Positions 6,296 to 12,601 of a stretch of DNA of 64,000 bases are shown one piece after another (positions within the stretch are counted from its first letter, which is position 1; each line of letters starts with the position of its first letter). Location of the stretch: IMG/VR virus record IMGVR_UViG_3300044632_001218; one strand, given 5' to 3'. The stretch is from a virus. The notes under the pieces were generated by a model. The model searched no databases. It was not told the DNA's origin and saw only the letters and a list, made by a program, of their open reading frames with translations. The position numbers and the translations under genes were made by a program.

Positions 6296-7309
6296 ATGAG
6301 CTTTGTTGATTCCAAATACATTGGACTGATATCCCCAAGACTTCAAAAATTTAAACAAGTAAAAAATAATCTTTATAATTTTAGGTGTCCCTATTGTGGG
6401 GATTCCCAGAGGCATAAAAATAAAGCAAGAGGATATATTTACCAACTTAAAAATGACCACAATTATAAATGTCATAATTGTGGAATGTCTAAATCTTTTA
6501 CTAATTTTCTAAAGGATTTGGACACATCACTATATGACCAGTATGTGATGGAACGATATAAGAATGGTATTACTGGGAAAAATTCCAATACTCCTGAACC
6601 TCAGTTCAATTTTCAGGAACCAAAGTTTTCTAAAAAAGTTAAAAATTGTAAGGTAGATTTGCCAACAATAGCAGAACTAAATACTGAGCACCCAGCAAAA
6701 GTATACTTACATAAAAGAAAAATTCCAGAAAAATTTTTTGGAGAACTGTATTATTGTGAAAATTTTAAAGCATGGACAAATGAGCAAAAGTATACATTTG
6801 AAACTACAGACCATGATGAACCAAGAATCATTATCCCATTAATCAACAAAGGGACACTATTTGGGTTTCAAGGTCGTAGTCTAAACAAAAATTCTAAAAT
6901 TAAATATATTACTATAATTTTAGATGAGCACCATCCAAAAATTTATGGTCTTGATAAAATCAATTGGGATAAAACTGTTTATATAACAGAAGGTCCATTT
7001 GATAGTATGTTTATAGATAATGCCATTGCTATGGTTGGTGCTGATGTTGATAAAATGTTTTTTGTAACGAACTTTGAAACTAACTTTGTTATGATTTATG
7101 ATAATGAAAAAAGAAATAAACAGATTGTAGATAGGATTGAAAAGGCAATTAATACACATTTCCCTGTGGTTATTTGGCCATCAGATGTAAAGGAAAAGGA
7201 TATTAATGATATGGTTTTATCTGGACTTGATGTGGATAGTATGCTAAAATCAAATACTTATTCAGGTTTAGAAGCAAAAGCAAAACTTATTAGTTGGAAA
7301 AGAGTATGA
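6296..7309 (+). CDS. g61: DNA primase (T4 gp61-like)
   Basis: CPYC...CHNC zinc domain, TEGPFDS TOPRIM motif, DNE and KDIND acidic motifs. Confidence 0.95.
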   Translation: MSFVDSKYIGLISPRLQKFKQVKNNLYNFRCPYCGDSQRHKNKARGYIYQLKNDHNYKCHNCGMSKSFTNFLKDLDTSLYDQYVMERYKNGITGKNSNTPEPQFNFQEPKFSKKVKNCKVDLPTIAELNTEHPAKVYLHKRKIPEKFFGELYYCENFKAWTNEQKYTFETTDHDEPRIIIPLINKGTLFGFQGRSLNKNSKIKYITIILDEHHPKIYGLDKINWDKTVYITEGPFDSMFIDNAIAMVGADVDKMFFVTNFETNFVMIYDNEKRNKQIVDRIEKAINTHFPVVIWPSDVKEKDINDMVLSGLDVDSMLKSNTYSGLEAKAKLISWKRV

Positions 7310-9600
7310 GCAACGGGTTAAAGGTAACTAAAAGAAATGGTATTATTCAATCACTTGATTTGGATAAGATGCATTTGATGGTTGAAGAGTCATGTAAAGG
7401 TCTTGCAGGAGTATCTGCAAGTCAAGTTGAGATGCAATCTGGAATTCAGTTCTATGATGGTATCACCACAGCAGAAATTCAAGAAATCTTGATTCGCTCT
7501 GCATCAGATTTGATTGATTTGGACCATCCAAATTATCAGTTTGTTGCAGCACGTCTTCTTCTTTTTTCACTTAGAAAAAGTTTGTATGGTGGTATCAAAG
7601 ACTTCCCTCACCTTGAGGAGCACATTAACAATTGTGTAGCAAAGGGAGTTTATGATAGTGAAATTTTTATCAAATACTCTAAAGAAGAAATAGATAGAGT
7701 AAATGGATTTATTGACCATGATAGGGATATGCTTTTTACCTATGCAGGTCTTCGTCAGGTAGTAGATAAGTATCTGGTACAAGACAGAAGTCTTGGTAAG
7801 GTTTATGAGACTCCTCAGTTCATGTATATTATGATTGCTCTGACAATCTTTGCAGAGTATCCAAAAGAAACTCGTTTGGAATATGTTCGTAGGTACTACA
7901 ATGCAATCTCAAAGCACAAAATCAACATTCCTACACCAATCATGGCAGGTGTTAGAACCCCACTTCGCCAATTTGCAAGTTGCGTTCTTGTTGATGTTGA
8001 TGACACCCTTGACAGTATCTTCAGCAGTGATATGGCAATTGGTCGCTATGTTGCTCAAAGAGCAGGAATTGGTATCAATGCAGGTAGAATCAGGGGCATC
8101 AATTCTAAAATCAGAGGGGGAGAAGTTGCTCATACAGGGGTTGTCCCATTCCTCAAAAAGTTTGAAGCAACTGTCAGATGTTGCACTCAAAATGGCATCA
8201 GAGGTGGAAGTGCTACTGTCCACTTTCCAATCTGGCACCAAGAAATAGAAGATATTATTGTTCTCAAAAACAATAAAGGAACAGAAGATAATAGAGTTAG
8301 AAAATTAGATTATTCTATTCAGATTAGCAAACTGTTCTATGAAAGATTTATTCAAGATGCAGAAATTACATTATTCTCTCCACATGATGTTCCTGGACTG
8401 TATGATGCTTTTGGCACTGACAGATTTGATGAGTTATATGTAGGGTATGAACAAAATTCAAGCATTCCTAAAAAGACAGTAAAAGCACAAAGTTTGATTC
8501 TTGACCTCCTCAAGGAAAGGGCAGAAACTGGTCGTATTTACATTATGAATATTGACCATTGCAACTCTCACTCTTCCTTCAAGGATAAAATTGAGATGTC
8601 AAATCTTTGTCAAGAAATTACTCTTCCCACAGTTCCTCTTCATCACATTGATGACCCTGAAGGTGAAATTGCATTGTGTATTCTTTCTGCCATTAATGTG
8701 GGTAAAGTTAAAGATGATGAAGAGTTTGAGGAACTTTGTGATTTGTCAGTAAGAGGATTGGAAGAACTGATTGATTATCAGAACTATCCAGTAGAAGCAG
8801 CAGAGATTTCTACAAAGGCACGCAGGTCTCTTGGAGTAGGTTTTATTGGACTGGCACATTATCTTGCTAAACTTGGGTTTAACTATGATTCACAAGAGGC
8901 ATGGGACGCAGTTCATGGTCTTTCTGAATCATTCCAGTATTTCTTGTTAAAATCTTCCAACCAGATTGCTAAAGAGAAAGGTTCTTGTAAGTATTTTAGC
9001 AGGACCAAATATGCTGATGGTATTCTTCCAATTGATACTTATAAAAAAGATGTAGACGAAATTTCCTCTATTACCTACCAACATGATTGGGAAACTTTAC
9101 GTGCCGAGATTCAGGCACATGGACTTAGACATTCAACATTGTCAGCACAGATGCCTTCGGAGAGCAGTTCCGTTGTGTCAAATGCAACCAATGGAATCGA
9201 ACCACCTCGTGGATTCTTGTCTATTAAAAAGTCAAAGAAGGGACCTCTTAAGCAGATTGTCCCCCAGTATCAAACTCTTAAGAGCAATTACACTCTTCTG
9301 TGGGACATGTCTAGCAATAGTGGTTATATCAACATTGTTGCTCTTATGCAAAAATTCTTCGATCAAGCGATTAGTGGAAACTGGTCCTATAACCCAGAGA
9401 ATTATCAAGACAATGAAGTCCCTGTTAGCGTGATGGCTCAGGATTTCTTATCCACATATAAGTATGGATGGAAGACAAGTTATTATCAGAATACATATGA
9501 TAATAAGACTGATGAAATAAAGGATGAACCAGTTAATTTAGATACACTTATTCAAGAACTATTAGAAGGAGAGGAAGATTGTGAATCCTGTAAAATTTAG
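7306..9600 (+). CDS. nrdA: ribonucleotide reductase class Ia alpha subunit
   Basis: ATP cone, RQFASCVL, SNLCQEI, SNATNGIEP, C-terminal CESC. Confidence 0.97.
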   Translation: MSNGLKVTKRNGIIQSLDLDKMHLMVEESCKGLAGVSASQVEMQSGIQFYDGITTAEIQEILIRSASDLIDLDHPNYQFVAARLLLFSLRKSLYGGIKDFPHLEEHINNCVAKGVYDSEIFIKYSKEEIDRVNGFIDHDRDMLFTYAGLRQVVDKYLVQDRSLGKVYETPQFMYIMIALTIFAEYPKETRLEYVRRYYNAISKHKINIPTPIMAGVRTPLRQFASCVLVDVDDTLDSIFSSDMAIGRYVAQRAGIGINAGRIRGINSKIRGGEVAHTGVVPFLKKFEATVRCCTQNGIRGGSATVHFPIWHQEIEDIIVLKNNKGTEDNRVRKLDYSIQISKLFYERFIQDAEITLFSPHDVPGLYDAFGTDRFDELYVGYEQNSSIPKKTVKAQSLILDLLKERAETGRIYIMNIDHCNSHSSFKDKIEMSNLCQEITLPTVPLHHIDDPEGEIALCILSAINVGKVKDDEEFEELCDLSVRGLEELIDYQNYPVEAAEISTKARRSLGVGFIGLAHYLAKLGFNYDSQEAWDAVHGLSESFQYFLLKSSNQIAKEKGSCKYFSRTKYADGILPIDTYKKDVDEISSITYQHDWETLRAEIQAHGLRHSTLSAQMPSESSSVVSNATNGIEPPRGFLSIKKSKKGPLKQIVPQYQTLKSNYTLLWDMSSNSGYINIVALMQKFFDQAISGNWSYNPENYQDNEVPVSVMAQDFLSTYKYGWKTSYYQNTYDNKTDEIKDEPVNLDTLIQELLEGEEDCESCKI

Positions 9601-10765
9601 AGTTAATTCAGAAGAAAACAAAATGCCAGAAGGAATGACAGTATTTAATACAACACAAGTCAATACCAAAAAACAACCAATGTTTTTTGGAAACCCTTTG
9701 GGTGTTCAAAGATATGATCAATACAAATATCCTGTATTTGATAAATTAACTCAACAACAACTTGGATACTTCTGGAGACCAGAAGAAATTTCTCTTCAAA
9801 AAGATAGGGCAGATTATCATACTCTCAGACCAGAACAAAAACACATCTTCACATCAAATCTAAAGTATCAGATTCTTCTTGATTCAGTTCAAGGAAGAGG
9901 TCCTGGTATGGCATTTATTCCATACTGCTCTCTTCCTGAATTGGAGGCATGTATGACTGTATGGGAATTCATGGAAATGATTCACTCTAGGTCTTATACT
10001 TACATTATCAAAAATGTATACTCAGATCCATCAGAAGTTTTTGATACTATTCTAACCAACGACAAGATTTTGGAGAGGGCATCTTCAGTAACACAAGCTT
10101 ATGATGACTTTATTAATTCAGCACAAAAGTATGGAACTTCTAATGATTGGATATTTGCACAAGAAGGTGCAGGGTATGCTAAAGAAGAAAGAATTGAATT
10201 AAAAAGAAAACTTTACAGAGCAATTGCTAATGTCAACATTCTCGAAGGTATCAGGTTTTATGTCTCTTTCGCTTGCTCGTTTGCGTTTGGTGAACTCAAA
10301 CTTATGGAAGGATCAGCTAAAATTATCTCTCTTATCGCCAGAGATGAAAATCAGCATCTTGTCATTACTCAAAACATCATCAACAAGTGGCGTGAAGGAG
10401 ATGATTCAGAAATGCAACAAATTGCTAAAGAAGAAGAGGACTGGGTAATCAATGCATTCAAGACTTGTGTAGACCAAGAAAAAGCATGGGCACAATATTT
10501 GTTCAAGGATGGTTCTATGATTGGTCTTAATGATAAACTTCTCAACAATTATGTTGAGTGGATTGCTAATAGAAGAATGAGATCTATTGGTCTTAAGACA
10601 ATTTATGATATTGCTGCTAAAAATAATCCACTTCCCTGGACTGAGCACTGGATTTCCTCTAAAGGACTTCAAGTAGCACCACAAGAAACAGAAGTTGAAA
10701 GTTATGTGGTTGGAGGAATCAAACAAGACGTGAAGAAAGATACCTTTGCTGGATTCAAACTGTAG
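9581..10765 (+). CDS. nrdB: ribonucleotide reductase class Ia beta subunit
   Basis: FWRPEE, EMIHSRSY with the radical Tyr, EGIRF, DENQH, and VAPQETEVESY. Confidence 0.97.
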   Translation: MNPVKFRVNSEENKMPEGMTVFNTTQVNTKKQPMFFGNPLGVQRYDQYKYPVFDKLTQQQLGYFWRPEEISLQKDRADYHTLRPEQKHIFTSNLKYQILLDSVQGRGPGMAFIPYCSLPELEACMTVWEFMEMIHSRSYTYIIKNVYSDPSEVFDTILTNDKILERASSVTQAYDDFINSAQKYGTSNDWIFAQEGAGYAKEERIELKRKLYRAIANVNILEGIRFYVSFACSFAFGELKLMEGSAKIISLIARDENQHLVITQNIINKWREGDDSEMQQIAKEEEDWVINAFKTCVDQEKAWAQYLFKDGSMIGLNDKLLNNYVEWIANRRMRSIGLKTIYDIAAKNNPLPWTEHWISSKGLQVAPQETEVESYVVGGIKQDVKKDTFAGFKL

Positions 10766-10776
10766 CAGATTATACA
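10761..10776 (+). promoter_or_regulatory. NtcA-binding site
   Basis: TGTA-GCAGATTA-TACA is an exact TGTA-N8-TACA; it overlaps the nrdB stop. Confidence 0.65.
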
Positions 10777-10799
10777 AAATAAAATTATAAAATAATATA

Positions 10800-10853
10800 C
10801 GTTCATTTGCTATTTGCAAATAGCAAACGGAAGTAGGGAAACTGAAGGAACGC
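10800..10853 (+). ncRNA. glutamine riboswitch-like RNA (glnA / Downstream-peptide class)
   Basis: P1 CGTTC/GAACG, P2 TTTGCTATTTGCAAATAGCAAA hairpin, GGAAGTA...GAAG loop-E, and a GAAA-capped short stem; matches the remembered consensus. Confidence 0.8.
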
Positions 10854-10884
10854 ACCAATACCCATAAAGTAAAGGAGCAAACCT

Positions 10885-10965
10885 ATGGCGCTTATTTTAA
10901 TCAAACAAAAAATTATGAAAGAAAGAAGACTGTATGAAGCACAACTTCATATGGCAACTCGTTGA
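10885..10965 (+). CDS. 26-aa riboswitch-associated peptide MALILIKQKIMKERRLYEAQLHMATR (not in ORF track)
   Basis: AAAGGAG SD at 10871-10877, ATG at 10885, terminator directly downstream. Confidence 0.75.
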   Translation: MALILIKQKIMKERRLYEAQLHMATR

Positions 10966-10973
10966 AGATTTGA

Positions 10974-10999
10974 GAGGGTCCTTGTGACCCTCTTTTTTT
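10974..10999 (+). terminator. intrinsic terminator
   Basis: GAGGGTC-cttgt-GACCCTC followed by a T-tract. Confidence 0.85.
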
Positions 11000-11006
11000 A
11001 TAAATA
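10999..11006 (+). promoter_or_regulatory. T4-type late promoter
   Basis: Exact TATAAATA upstream of 11027. Confidence 0.8.
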
Positions 11007-11026: not shown

Positions 11027-11638
11027 ATGGCTGGATTAAACAACATCAGAGAAGCATATGACCAAGTTTATGCTCAAGTGGTTGAGAGAATGGACCCAGA
11101 AGAAAGAGAACTGAGAAGAGCAGAGGTTGCTGATAGAAAGGCAAGTAGAATGGACTCTAAGGTTGCTGCTAAGTATGCAGGGTCAGAAGCACAATCAGCA
11201 GCAAGAGCAGATAAGAAATCAAAAGGTAAGCACATTCATGGAATGGCAGATTCCTATGATGTTGAAGGAGACCTTGTAGATGAAGCTAGAAAACCATCTC
11301 AAATTGCAAAAATAAAGAAATTGAATGCTCTGATGAATCAGAGACATCAAGAGAATGAAAAGGCAAGAAAGGAGATGATAGGAACTCAGGCACACAAAGA
11401 TATGGTGAAAGCTGCCTCAAGACATTTTGAAGAAACTGAACTTTCAGAAAGAGAACTTGACCCAACAGAAACCAGAGAAAAAGAAAGACTTGTAAAAGGT
11501 CTCAAGAAGTCTGCTGGTGATTTTAAACAAAGATATGGGGCAAGAGCAAAATCAGTAATGTATGCTACTGCCACAAAGATGGCTAAAGACAGGATGGACA
11601 CATCCAAGTCAGACAGGAGATATGGTGTTGAGGGATGA
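11027..11638 (+). CDS. charged late protein, putative internal head protein
   Basis: Late promoter; K/R/E-rich; KERLVKGLKK...FKQRYG.RAKSVMYATATKMAK module. Confidence 0.55.
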   Translation: MAGLNNIREAYDQVYAQVVERMDPEERELRRAEVADRKASRMDSKVAAKYAGSEAQSAARADKKSKGKHIHGMADSYDVEGDLVDEARKPSQIAKIKKLNALMNQRHQENEKARKEMIGTQAHKDMVKAASRHFEETELSERELDPTETREKERLVKGLKKSAGDFKQRYGARAKSVMYATATKMAKDRMDTSKSDRRYGVEG

Positions 11639-12142: not shown

Positions 12143-12601
12143 ATGAGCTATGATAATCCTTGGAAATATCAAGGAAAGGTCTTTGAATCAGAAGATATTC
12201 AAGACAACTTTGGATTTGTTTATCTTATCACAAATAAAATAAATTCAAAACAATATATTGGCAGAAAGTATCTGTGGCAATTTAGAACGCCAAAAGGTAA
12301 GAAGAGAAAAGTAAAATCAGAATCTGATTGGAAGAATTATTATGGGTCTTGTCCAGAGCTTAAAGAAGATATTGTTAAGTATGGCAGAGAAAACTTTGTT
12401 AGAGTTATCTTGTCGTTACATAAAACACCAGGCAAAACTAATTATGAGGAGACGAGACAACTCTTTGTCAACAATGTCCTCACTGAATCCCTTGACAACG
12501 GAGACCCAGCATTCTACAATAGTAACATCCTGTCAAGATACTTCAGAAAAGATTATTATGAATTCGATGCAAATGCAGAAGATGTGTCAGAAACAAGTTG
12601 A
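12143..12601 (+). CDS. denA: GIY-YIG endonuclease II-like protein
   Basis: GFVY...YIGRK, WKNYYGSC, YEE...LF...VL...YN.NI pattern of the T4 EndoII family. Confidence 0.75.
   Translation: MSYDNPWKYQGKVFESEDIQDNFGFVYLITNKINSKQYIGRKYLWQFRTPKGKKRKVKSESDWKNYYGSCPELKEDIVKYGRENFVRVILSLHKTPGKTNYEETRQLFVNNVLTESLDNGDPAFYNSNILSRYFRKDYYEFDANAEDVSETS

Follow-up and report, generated by a model that had tools for sequence, protein, structure and literature searches.

Cyanophage infection outcomes depend on host nitrogen status, and we know of no phage-encoded sensor of that status that has been characterised. Positions 10761-10999 of the viral record IMGVR_UViG_3300044632_001218 raise the question of whether such a sensor could be carried in a very compact form. 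The whole 64,000-nucleotide (nt) stretch analysed here, referred to as the window, is T4-like cyanomyovirus DNA. The original prediction, made from the letters alone, had read this short segment as a nitrogen-sensing unit, composed of an NtcA box, a -10 candidate, a glutamine riboswitch, a Shine-Dalgarno (SD) sequence, a small open-reading frame (ORF) and a terminator. Each of these elements was found where it had been placed:

10761-10776, no strand: NtcA-type palindrome TGTA-N8-TACA (GTA-N8-TAC at 10762-10775), overlapping the nrdB stop codon at 10763-10765
10788-10793, + strand: candidate -10 hexamer TAAAAT, read from the sequence; start predicted at about 10799-10800, the 5' end of the aptamer
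10798-10856, + strand: type-1 glutamine riboswitch aptamer (glnA RNA, RF01739), identified by Rfam covariance model
10857-10884, + strand: linker with a strong SD, AAGGAG, at 10872-10877, 7 nt 5' of the ATG
10885-10965, + strand: 26-codon ORF, from the ORF list, for a basic, predicted single-helix peptide (the 'B' module) with the conserved core R-L-x-x-A-Q-L
10972-10999, + strand: intrinsic terminator (stem 10972-10994 plus T run), from a consensus scan and fold energy

The view that box, promoter, riboswitch, SD, small ORF and terminator would form one unit holds up well under comparison with related loci. The box keeps a fixed offset, the aptamer covaries, the ORF shows purifying selection and the terminator is conserved. 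Pairing between the leader and the SD (anti-SD pairing), which other phage glutamine riboswitches show, is missing here. We assign a probability of roughly 0.65 to the reading that the cassette is an autonomous, host-derived nitrogen-status unit, in which NtcA would repress transcription from a site near -30 and glutamine would activate translation of a helical peptide.

The box stands at a fixed distance from the aptamer

On its own, the exact 16-mer TGTA-N8-TACA is at chance level, with one copy in the window and 1.65 expected. The looser GTA-N8-TAC is about twofold enriched over the whole window (17 found versus 8.8 +/- 2.9 expected; 1 of 100 shuffles reached 17). In related loci, however, the box recurs at a constant offset, and this is what marks it as more than a chance occurrence. 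A first scan of viral contigs for an aptamer-core pattern gave at least 120 loci, 117 of them with enough upstream sequence. Among the matches listed, to which all phage locus counts in this section refer, GTA-N8-TAC lies 24 or 25 nt 5' of the aptamer CGTTCA 16 times and at any other offset about once. The leader of all 16 box loci ends in the same GTAAAGGAGC SD as that of the window, and the box at 24-25 nt is present in 16 of 19 cyanophage-type leaders versus 0 of 98 other leaders (Fisher test, 5e-17). A second scan, aimed at the cyanophage-type leader, returned at least 117 loci; in the 90 with enough upstream DNA, the exact GTA-N8-TAC stands at 24-25 nt in 72 and at 44-47 nt in 8. Genomic context varies between box loci, some of which lie at the end of nrdB like the window and others elsewhere. 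Because the loci share ancestry, these counts are not independent events.

Variation within the box is unevenly spread. The spacer between the half-sites has 29 distinct 8-base versions in related cyanophage loci. All six specified bases are present in 57 of 75 distinct upstream sequences and exactly five of the six in none, which makes the scores bimodal. Perfect half-sites around a free spacer, confined to cyanophage-type leaders, are what a palindromic site bound by a regulator would predict. In cyanobacterial genomes scanned for the same aptamer core, GTA-N8-TAC lies 9-19 nt 5' of the aptamer in 34 of 126 matches, mostly before gifB-type ORFs.

One peptide subtype (L014, L106, L264, L268, L269, L278, L300, L338) has its box 44-47 nt 5' of the aptamer. 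Most loci with this spacing carry a complete sigma70-type promoter between box and aptamer (e.g. TTGACT-N17-TATAAT or TAGGAT), and in this subtype the promoter -10 is embedded in an inverted repeat with compensatory changes.

Position of the box relative to the promoter

Relatives share the layout of the stretch between box and aptamer: TAC-AAAA, about eight variable bases, a -10-like element and 5-7 further bases. The -10 candidate of the window, TAAAAT, is a good match to TA-N3-T. With the start predicted from the sequence at 10799-10800, the box would be centred near -30.5, close to repressive -28.5 sites. A start at the 5' end of the aptamer is supported by a sister group in which 8 nt separate a complete TTGACT-N17-TATAAT promoter from the aptamer and the box lies farther upstream. 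NtcA sites near -28.5 repress in gifA promoters (PMC6316151), and NtcA represses both gifA and gifB (PMC6212724).

A class-II activation geometry, with the box centred near -41.5, was considered and rejected: the start would then fall inside P1 of the aptamer. Canonical NtcA activation uses a site centred near -41.5 and about 22 nt from the -10. The gap between box and -10 in the window is about 12 nt, which is one helical turn too close for class-II activation.

A perfect T4-type late motif, TATAAATA, is found at 10999-11006, directly 3' of the terminator and before the next gene. It lies about 20 nt 5' of a 203-residue ORF at 11027-11638 (phrog_12788, function unknown), and L243 and L260, the closest related contigs, both retain its ATAAATA core. 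True late promoters of this phage would thus look unlike the cassette -10. The terminator followed by a separate TATAAATA for the next gene also argues for a boundary of the cassette unit at this point. A late-promoter reading of the window cassette was rejected, as its -10 region reads TATAAAAT and the perfect motif comes only after the terminator; relatives are ambiguous in this respect. For the window cassette, we therefore favour a sigma70-type -10.

The glutamine aptamer and its expression platform

The RNA that had been described as shaped like a glutamine riboswitch is recognised by the Rfam glnA model. RF01739 matches 10798-10856 over its full length (1-53 of 53) and scores 53.5 bits, above the gathering score of 35 (E 6e-9); the aptamer is the sole one in the 64-kilobase (kb) window, even at E 0.1. 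The other Rfam model that had been named for this locus, RF01704 (Downstream-peptide, or Glutamine-II), has no match in the window at E up to 0.1. Both conserved aptamer cores, CGGAAGUA and GAAGGAACGC, are in the window.

Sixty phage aptamers, including that of the window, share the expected P1, P1a and P2 fold, with an invariant P1. Both P2 pairs, together with three of the four in P1a, stay paired despite double changes, each in 5-24 sequences; the remaining P1a pair (columns 12/33) has undergone 26 double changes, although 16 sequences break or gap it. In the window, positions 10809-10824 form the P1a hairpin, a 16-nt perfect palindrome (GCTATTTG/CAAATAGC). Many related loci preserve the actual sequence of its inner part, TATTTGC(A/G)AATA, and the outer pairs change compensatorily. 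Such conservation of the inner sequence exceeds the needs of a plain hairpin.

The 3' part of the SD pairs, in other phage families, with the C that follows P1 and 4-6 further nt, as the gifB model proposes, and this helix covaries (CACCU/GGGUG, CAUCU/GGAUG, CACUU/AAGUG). By a consensus scan of the window, aptamer and ORF are not separated by a terminator. In the minimum-free-energy (MFE) fold, the aptamer core pairs with the opening codons of the ORF; this pairing was rejected as a switch element, being neither conserved nor better than in shuffles.

The 98 riboswitch loci with other leader types (among L003-L122, among the matches listed), all of them lacking an NtcA box, lead short basic peptides of several other families, for example peptides of 28-38 residues with an aromatic W/Y-C motif, of 64-65 residues with a G-x-G-T-S-G-Y core, of 49 residues ending in N-P-F-Y-P and of 50 residues ending in D-P-R-L-Q. 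The leaders of these families show the covarying anti-SD helix.

The small ORF encodes a separate helical module

By its pattern of substitution, the 26-codon ORF is a real gene under purifying selection. The eight distinct DNA versions of the window subtype have a ratio of nonsynonymous to synonymous polymorphism (pN/pS) of 0.26, with 12, 4 and 16 variable columns at the first, second and third codon positions, and three sister peptide subtypes have values of 0.16-0.27. The ORF is retained in three relatives in which no intact aptamer is detected directly upstream. Past the stop codon, homologous loci diverge except for the hairpin and T run, whose stems differ in sequence but keep their pairing. 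The terminator of the window folds with -15.4 kcal/mol (z -4.07).

The peptide had been offered as a possible minimal variant of DUF4278. This suggestion failed, as the peptide has no YRG motif and no Pfam match even at E 10; judged by its sequence relatives, the B peptide is a separate single-helix module. Pfam and NCBIfam contain no match to the 26-residue peptide, and a PDB sequence search and the ESM Atlas returned no named relative and no matching solved structure. The unannotated family phrog_545 matches residues 3-25 weakly (E 0.0037, 18.2 bits) and a 43-residue fused relative more clearly (E 3.5e-7). In alignment A1, the core of the window subtype aligns gaplessly with three other phage subtypes and with the C-terminal half of this 43-residue fusion, whose N-terminus is a single YRG motif. 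Fused relatives match DUF4278 (PF14105) only in the N-terminal hairpin and under the cut-off (E 0.06-0.07). An AlphaFold2 model of the fusion consists of a beta hairpin (3-12) and one long helix (13-42), with a mean predicted local distance difference test (pLDDT) score of 88.9, and backs the helix that had been proposed for the window peptide.

Gene order in the cassette subfamily separates the two modules (counts are among the matches listed). A terminator comes next after 0 of 40 YRG-first ORFs, and a B-helix ORF comes next after 37 of 51, often with an overlapping start. By contrast, a terminator follows 29 of 39 helix-first ORFs and 14 of 16 fusions. The B helix occurs, alone, translationally coupled to YRG or fused with it, in 102 of 116 cassette loci, which makes the helix the most constant payload and the YRG module an optional one.

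A profile search of 5.8 billion proteins yielded 545 clusters, in which every name given by the source is hypothetical; among the 120 matches listed from that search, the longest contig is 251 kb. Searches of 50,697 phage records with tblastn, using the peptide and the fused form, gave no match, possibly owing to the low-complexity filter. The isolate Synechococcus phage DSL-LC02 (OR032571.1; L342:1260-1760) carries a cassette with the helix peptide. Its order is NtcA box, aptamer, an annotated 50-codon ORF, an aptamer 3' half, a 45-residue YRG peptide and an unannotated helix peptide, the start of which overlaps the stop of the YRG peptide. The RF01739 aptamer of DSL-LC02 scores 35.6 bits and its 3' end overlaps a second CGTTCA. 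The arrangement looks like a nested riboswitch layout.

Two other peptide-carrying viral contigs (L286:4993-5029 and L323:3484-3520) contain sub-threshold matches to RF01334, a direct-repeat model for clustered regularly interspaced short palindromic repeats (31.8-35.8 bits versus a gathering score of 48).

Homologues in small cyanobacterial genomes

When 401 evenly sampled genomes of Cyanobacteriia were searched in all six frames with alignment A1, 14 gave matches, all of them genomes of 1.7-3.7 megabases, with per-genome E-values that reach 6e-8. We infer that these 14 are picocyanobacteria. Their ORFs encode 33-64 residues with the helix first, and one has two YRG motifs after the helix. 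Directly upstream of all 12 host loci that were fetched is a Glutamine-II riboswitch (RF01704; 37.7-54.6 bits), which ends 15-20 nt before the ORF. Because riboswitch context was not part of the search, it confirms the homology independently. GTA-N8-TAC stands just upstream in 4 of the 12 loci, and hhalign relates the phage and host peptide families with a probability of 96.9%. In kind, then, the phage gene copies one class of the hosts' 'Downstream-peptide' genes. The best reading of these relationships is that the phage peptide is a host-derived module.

Proposed mechanism and alternatives

How might such a cassette operate in an infected cell? A box centred near -30.5 would overlap the position of RNA polymerase. 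Because it overlaps where the polymerase must sit, NtcA activated by 2-oxoglutarate would be expected to repress, and nitrogen shortage would shut off transcription of the cassette. With plentiful nitrogen, the glutamine-bound aptamer would permit translation, by the precedent of gifB. The two signals could together act as an AND gate, with peptide made only in nitrogen-replete infected cells. Most likely, the peptide docks as one amphipathic helix onto a host nitrogen-metabolism protein. Glutamine synthetase (GS) is one candidate, and a role there is pure conjecture.

Several points weigh against this mechanism. The anti-SD pairing is not in the window leader, in which the longest stem is 2 nt, and the MFE fold of the leader is no better than that of shuffles (z -1.15). 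For these two reasons, glutamine-ON translation is drawn from the family and not from the window sequence, and the ON direction of this riboswitch is proposed only by analogy. No -35 hexamer can be recognised in the window, and the -10-like element of many relatives is TA-N-ATA, nearer to the T4 late motif than to TA-N3-T; because of this resemblance to the T4 late core, it is uncertain which promoter class the family has and what a protein bound at -30 would do. There is no terminator upstream, and read-through from nrdB could bypass the box. Finally, shared ancestry of the related loci means that the box counts overstate the number of independent events.

The alternative that fares best concerns the target. 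The peptide may be a functional analogue of IF7/IF17, with a helix that inhibits host GS at high glutamine and a YRG module that stabilises it, as DUF4278 does in IF17. The cassette has the same dual control as gifB, its module architectures parallel those of cyanobacterial YRG and IF7-like proteins, and marine picocyanobacteria are without full-length IF7/IF17 (PMC6212724, PMC6316151). We nonetheless regard this role as doubtful. According to the cited review, earlier work ruled out IF-type regulation of GS in streamlined marine picocyanobacteria, and PDB, Pfam and NCBIfam yielded no link. Homology to IF7/IF17 was rejected: hhalign gives a probability of 0.3% for the phage peptide family against 23 IF7-like regions from cyanobacterial riboswitch loci and 0.7% for the host family, and the arginine-triad spacing of the IF7-like alignment (13 and 7 residues) is not in the window peptide.

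Alternatively, the box could be a working NtcA site that activates, such that transcription occurs under nitrogen stress and the riboswitch delays translation until glutamine recovers. We consider this improbable, as the box lies about 12 nt from the -10 instead of the canonical 22 or so, and shifting the start to restore that spacing would delete P1. In its favour, the window promoter is without a -35 hexamer, like activator-dependent promoters, and an activator box near -30 is a feature of T4 middle promoters. Sullivan et al. (2010; PMC3037559) also read cyanomyovirus NtcA sites as nitrogen-stress promoters. However, sites at -28.5 repress gifA (PMC6316151), and host genes with the same riboswitch logic as the cassette are NtcA-repressed (PMC6212724).

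Slightly less probable again is that GTA-N8-TAC is a phage sequence conserved close to the promoter, or is bound by some other factor, with the riboswitch alone sensing nitrogen. The exact 16-mer does occur at chance frequency in the window, and its flanks are conserved too (A-rich upstream; TAC then AAAA). A merely conserved stretch of this kind fits poorly with six specified bases that are kept perfectly while the inner eight vary among the matches listed, with confinement of the box to cyanophage-type leaders among those matches, and with the presence of the same motif beside the aptamer in cyanobacterial and host-homologue loci. That the short ORF is a leader or incidental frame and the RNA the functional product is very unlikely: the ORF has only 26 codons, no annotation and no Pfam or NCBIfam family, but it varies mostly at third positions, has a strong, well-spaced SD, and encodes a peptide that is kept where no intact aptamer is detected, stands behind another riboswitch class in hosts and is fused to YRG.

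If the cassette is a host-derived unit under NtcA repression and glutamine-activated translation, it would be a compact candidate sensor that reads 2-oxoglutarate via NtcA and glutamine via RNA and reports to one tiny effector. We tentatively put forward a broader idea, which we hold to be possible though rather unlikely: the B helix, and not YRG/DUF4278, may be the real effector of glutamine-riboswitch small-protein genes in picocyanobacteria and their phages, as a new class of glutamine-gated inhibitor that acts on a core enzyme or regulator of nitrogen metabolism (GS, PII, PipX or NtcA) and that the phage deploys to impose a 'nitrogen-replete' state on its host. Such an effector would explain many type-2 riboswitch genes of Prochlorococcus and Synechococcus, and it would explain how nitrogen assimilation is tuned in lineages without IF7/IF17. 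The phage shares the effector family with Prochlorococcus and Synechococcus, which have many peptides under glutamine-riboswitch control. The 26-residue phage version may be near the minimal active fragment, which eases synthesis, pull-downs and enzyme assays.

Genomic setting

Upstream of the cassette are nrdA (7294-9600) and nrdB (9581-10765), and a wcaG RNA, a PhotoRC-II RNA and tRNAs are found farther downstream in the window. Among isolates in the phage collection, Synechococcus phage DSL-LC03 comes nearest, with about 81% identity over parts of the region. DSL-LC03 is without the cassette, having different small ORFs 3' of nrdB and no glutamine aptamer. The sole blastn match of the cassette in the phage collection (50,697 records) is DSL-LC02. 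Similarity that seemed to reach into the box in P-SSM4-like phages was discarded, as it covers only the 3' end of nrdB, and P-SSM4 has neither box nor aptamer there. For a 152-residue ORF at 12143-12601, the matches are phrog_447 (labelled NAD synthetase, E 2e-62) and several PHROGs of homing endonucleases; it probably encodes a GIY-YIG-type homing endonuclease.

Comparison with known systems

The individual parts of the cassette are already known, and phage glutamine riboswitches are on record. Aptamers of the glnA type have been recorded in T4-like cyanophages, in pelagiphage Mosig and in methylophage Melnitz (PMC9964418, PMC9602691, PMC9004378). The window shares with them a phage-borne glnA-type aptamer; the papers differ from the present analysis in listing the RNA or linking it to transfer-messenger RNA (tmRNA). 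As far as the phage-riboswitch papers could be searched, an NtcA box, a promoter-to-terminator unit and a peptide payload are undescribed in them, and our literature search found no paper that links box, aptamer and B peptide in a phage. NtcA sites in cyanomyoviruses have likewise been described before, at 1-16 per genome, as promoters by which the phage takes advantage of the host response to nitrogen stress (Sullivan et al., 2010; PMC3037559). GTA-N8-TAC is frequent in those genomes and enriched in the window too. Unlike the box proposed here, the sites of that study were read as activating and were not linked to riboswitches.

The arrangement of modules also has a counterpart in cyanobacteria. 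Behind glutamine riboswitches, cyanobacteria have YRG-only proteins, IF7-like-only proteins and fusions of YRG with an IF7-like part; in phages and picocyanobacteria, YRG and the helix occur singly, coupled or fused. This parallel in architecture between the IF7-like and helix systems is suggestive only. Among the cyanobacterial loci, nine (L126, L139, L144, L147, L166, L177, L210, L214, L217) have a type-1 riboswitch followed by an ORF of 50-55 residues, which is the IF7-like motif alone with no YRG/DUF4278 part.

The Downstream-peptide genes of picocyanobacteria are close in kind. They are short ORFs directly behind a glutamine aptamer, one class is homologous to the phage gene, and some have an NtcA box. 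The papers on these genes describe the DUF4278 class and leave the remainder as 'no Pfam match' (Weinberg et al., 2010, PMC2864571; Klahn et al., 2018, PMC6212724). The hosts use RF01704, whereas the phage copy uses the type-1 aptamer RF01739, which Klahn et al. (PMC6212724) did not find in marine picocyanobacteria; phages are not mentioned in that study. The phage peptide, moreover, keeps the helix alone, at 26 residues versus 33-64 in the hosts.

A close precedent is gifB of Synechocystis sp. PCC 6803, in which glutamine has been shown experimentally to switch translation on (Klahn et al., 2018; PMC6212724). Compared with gifB-type loci, the cassette is on a phage and its box stands 24-25 nt from the aptamer instead of 9-19 nt. 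Its payload is neither DUF4278 nor IF7-like, and the anti-SD pairing proposed for gifB is not evident. The cassette nevertheless shares with the gifB (IF17) leader an RF01739 aptamer, an NtcA-type box immediately upstream and a small-protein payload. By this analogy, the same logic would be expected to govern the phage cassette: off in nitrogen shortage and on with glutamine.

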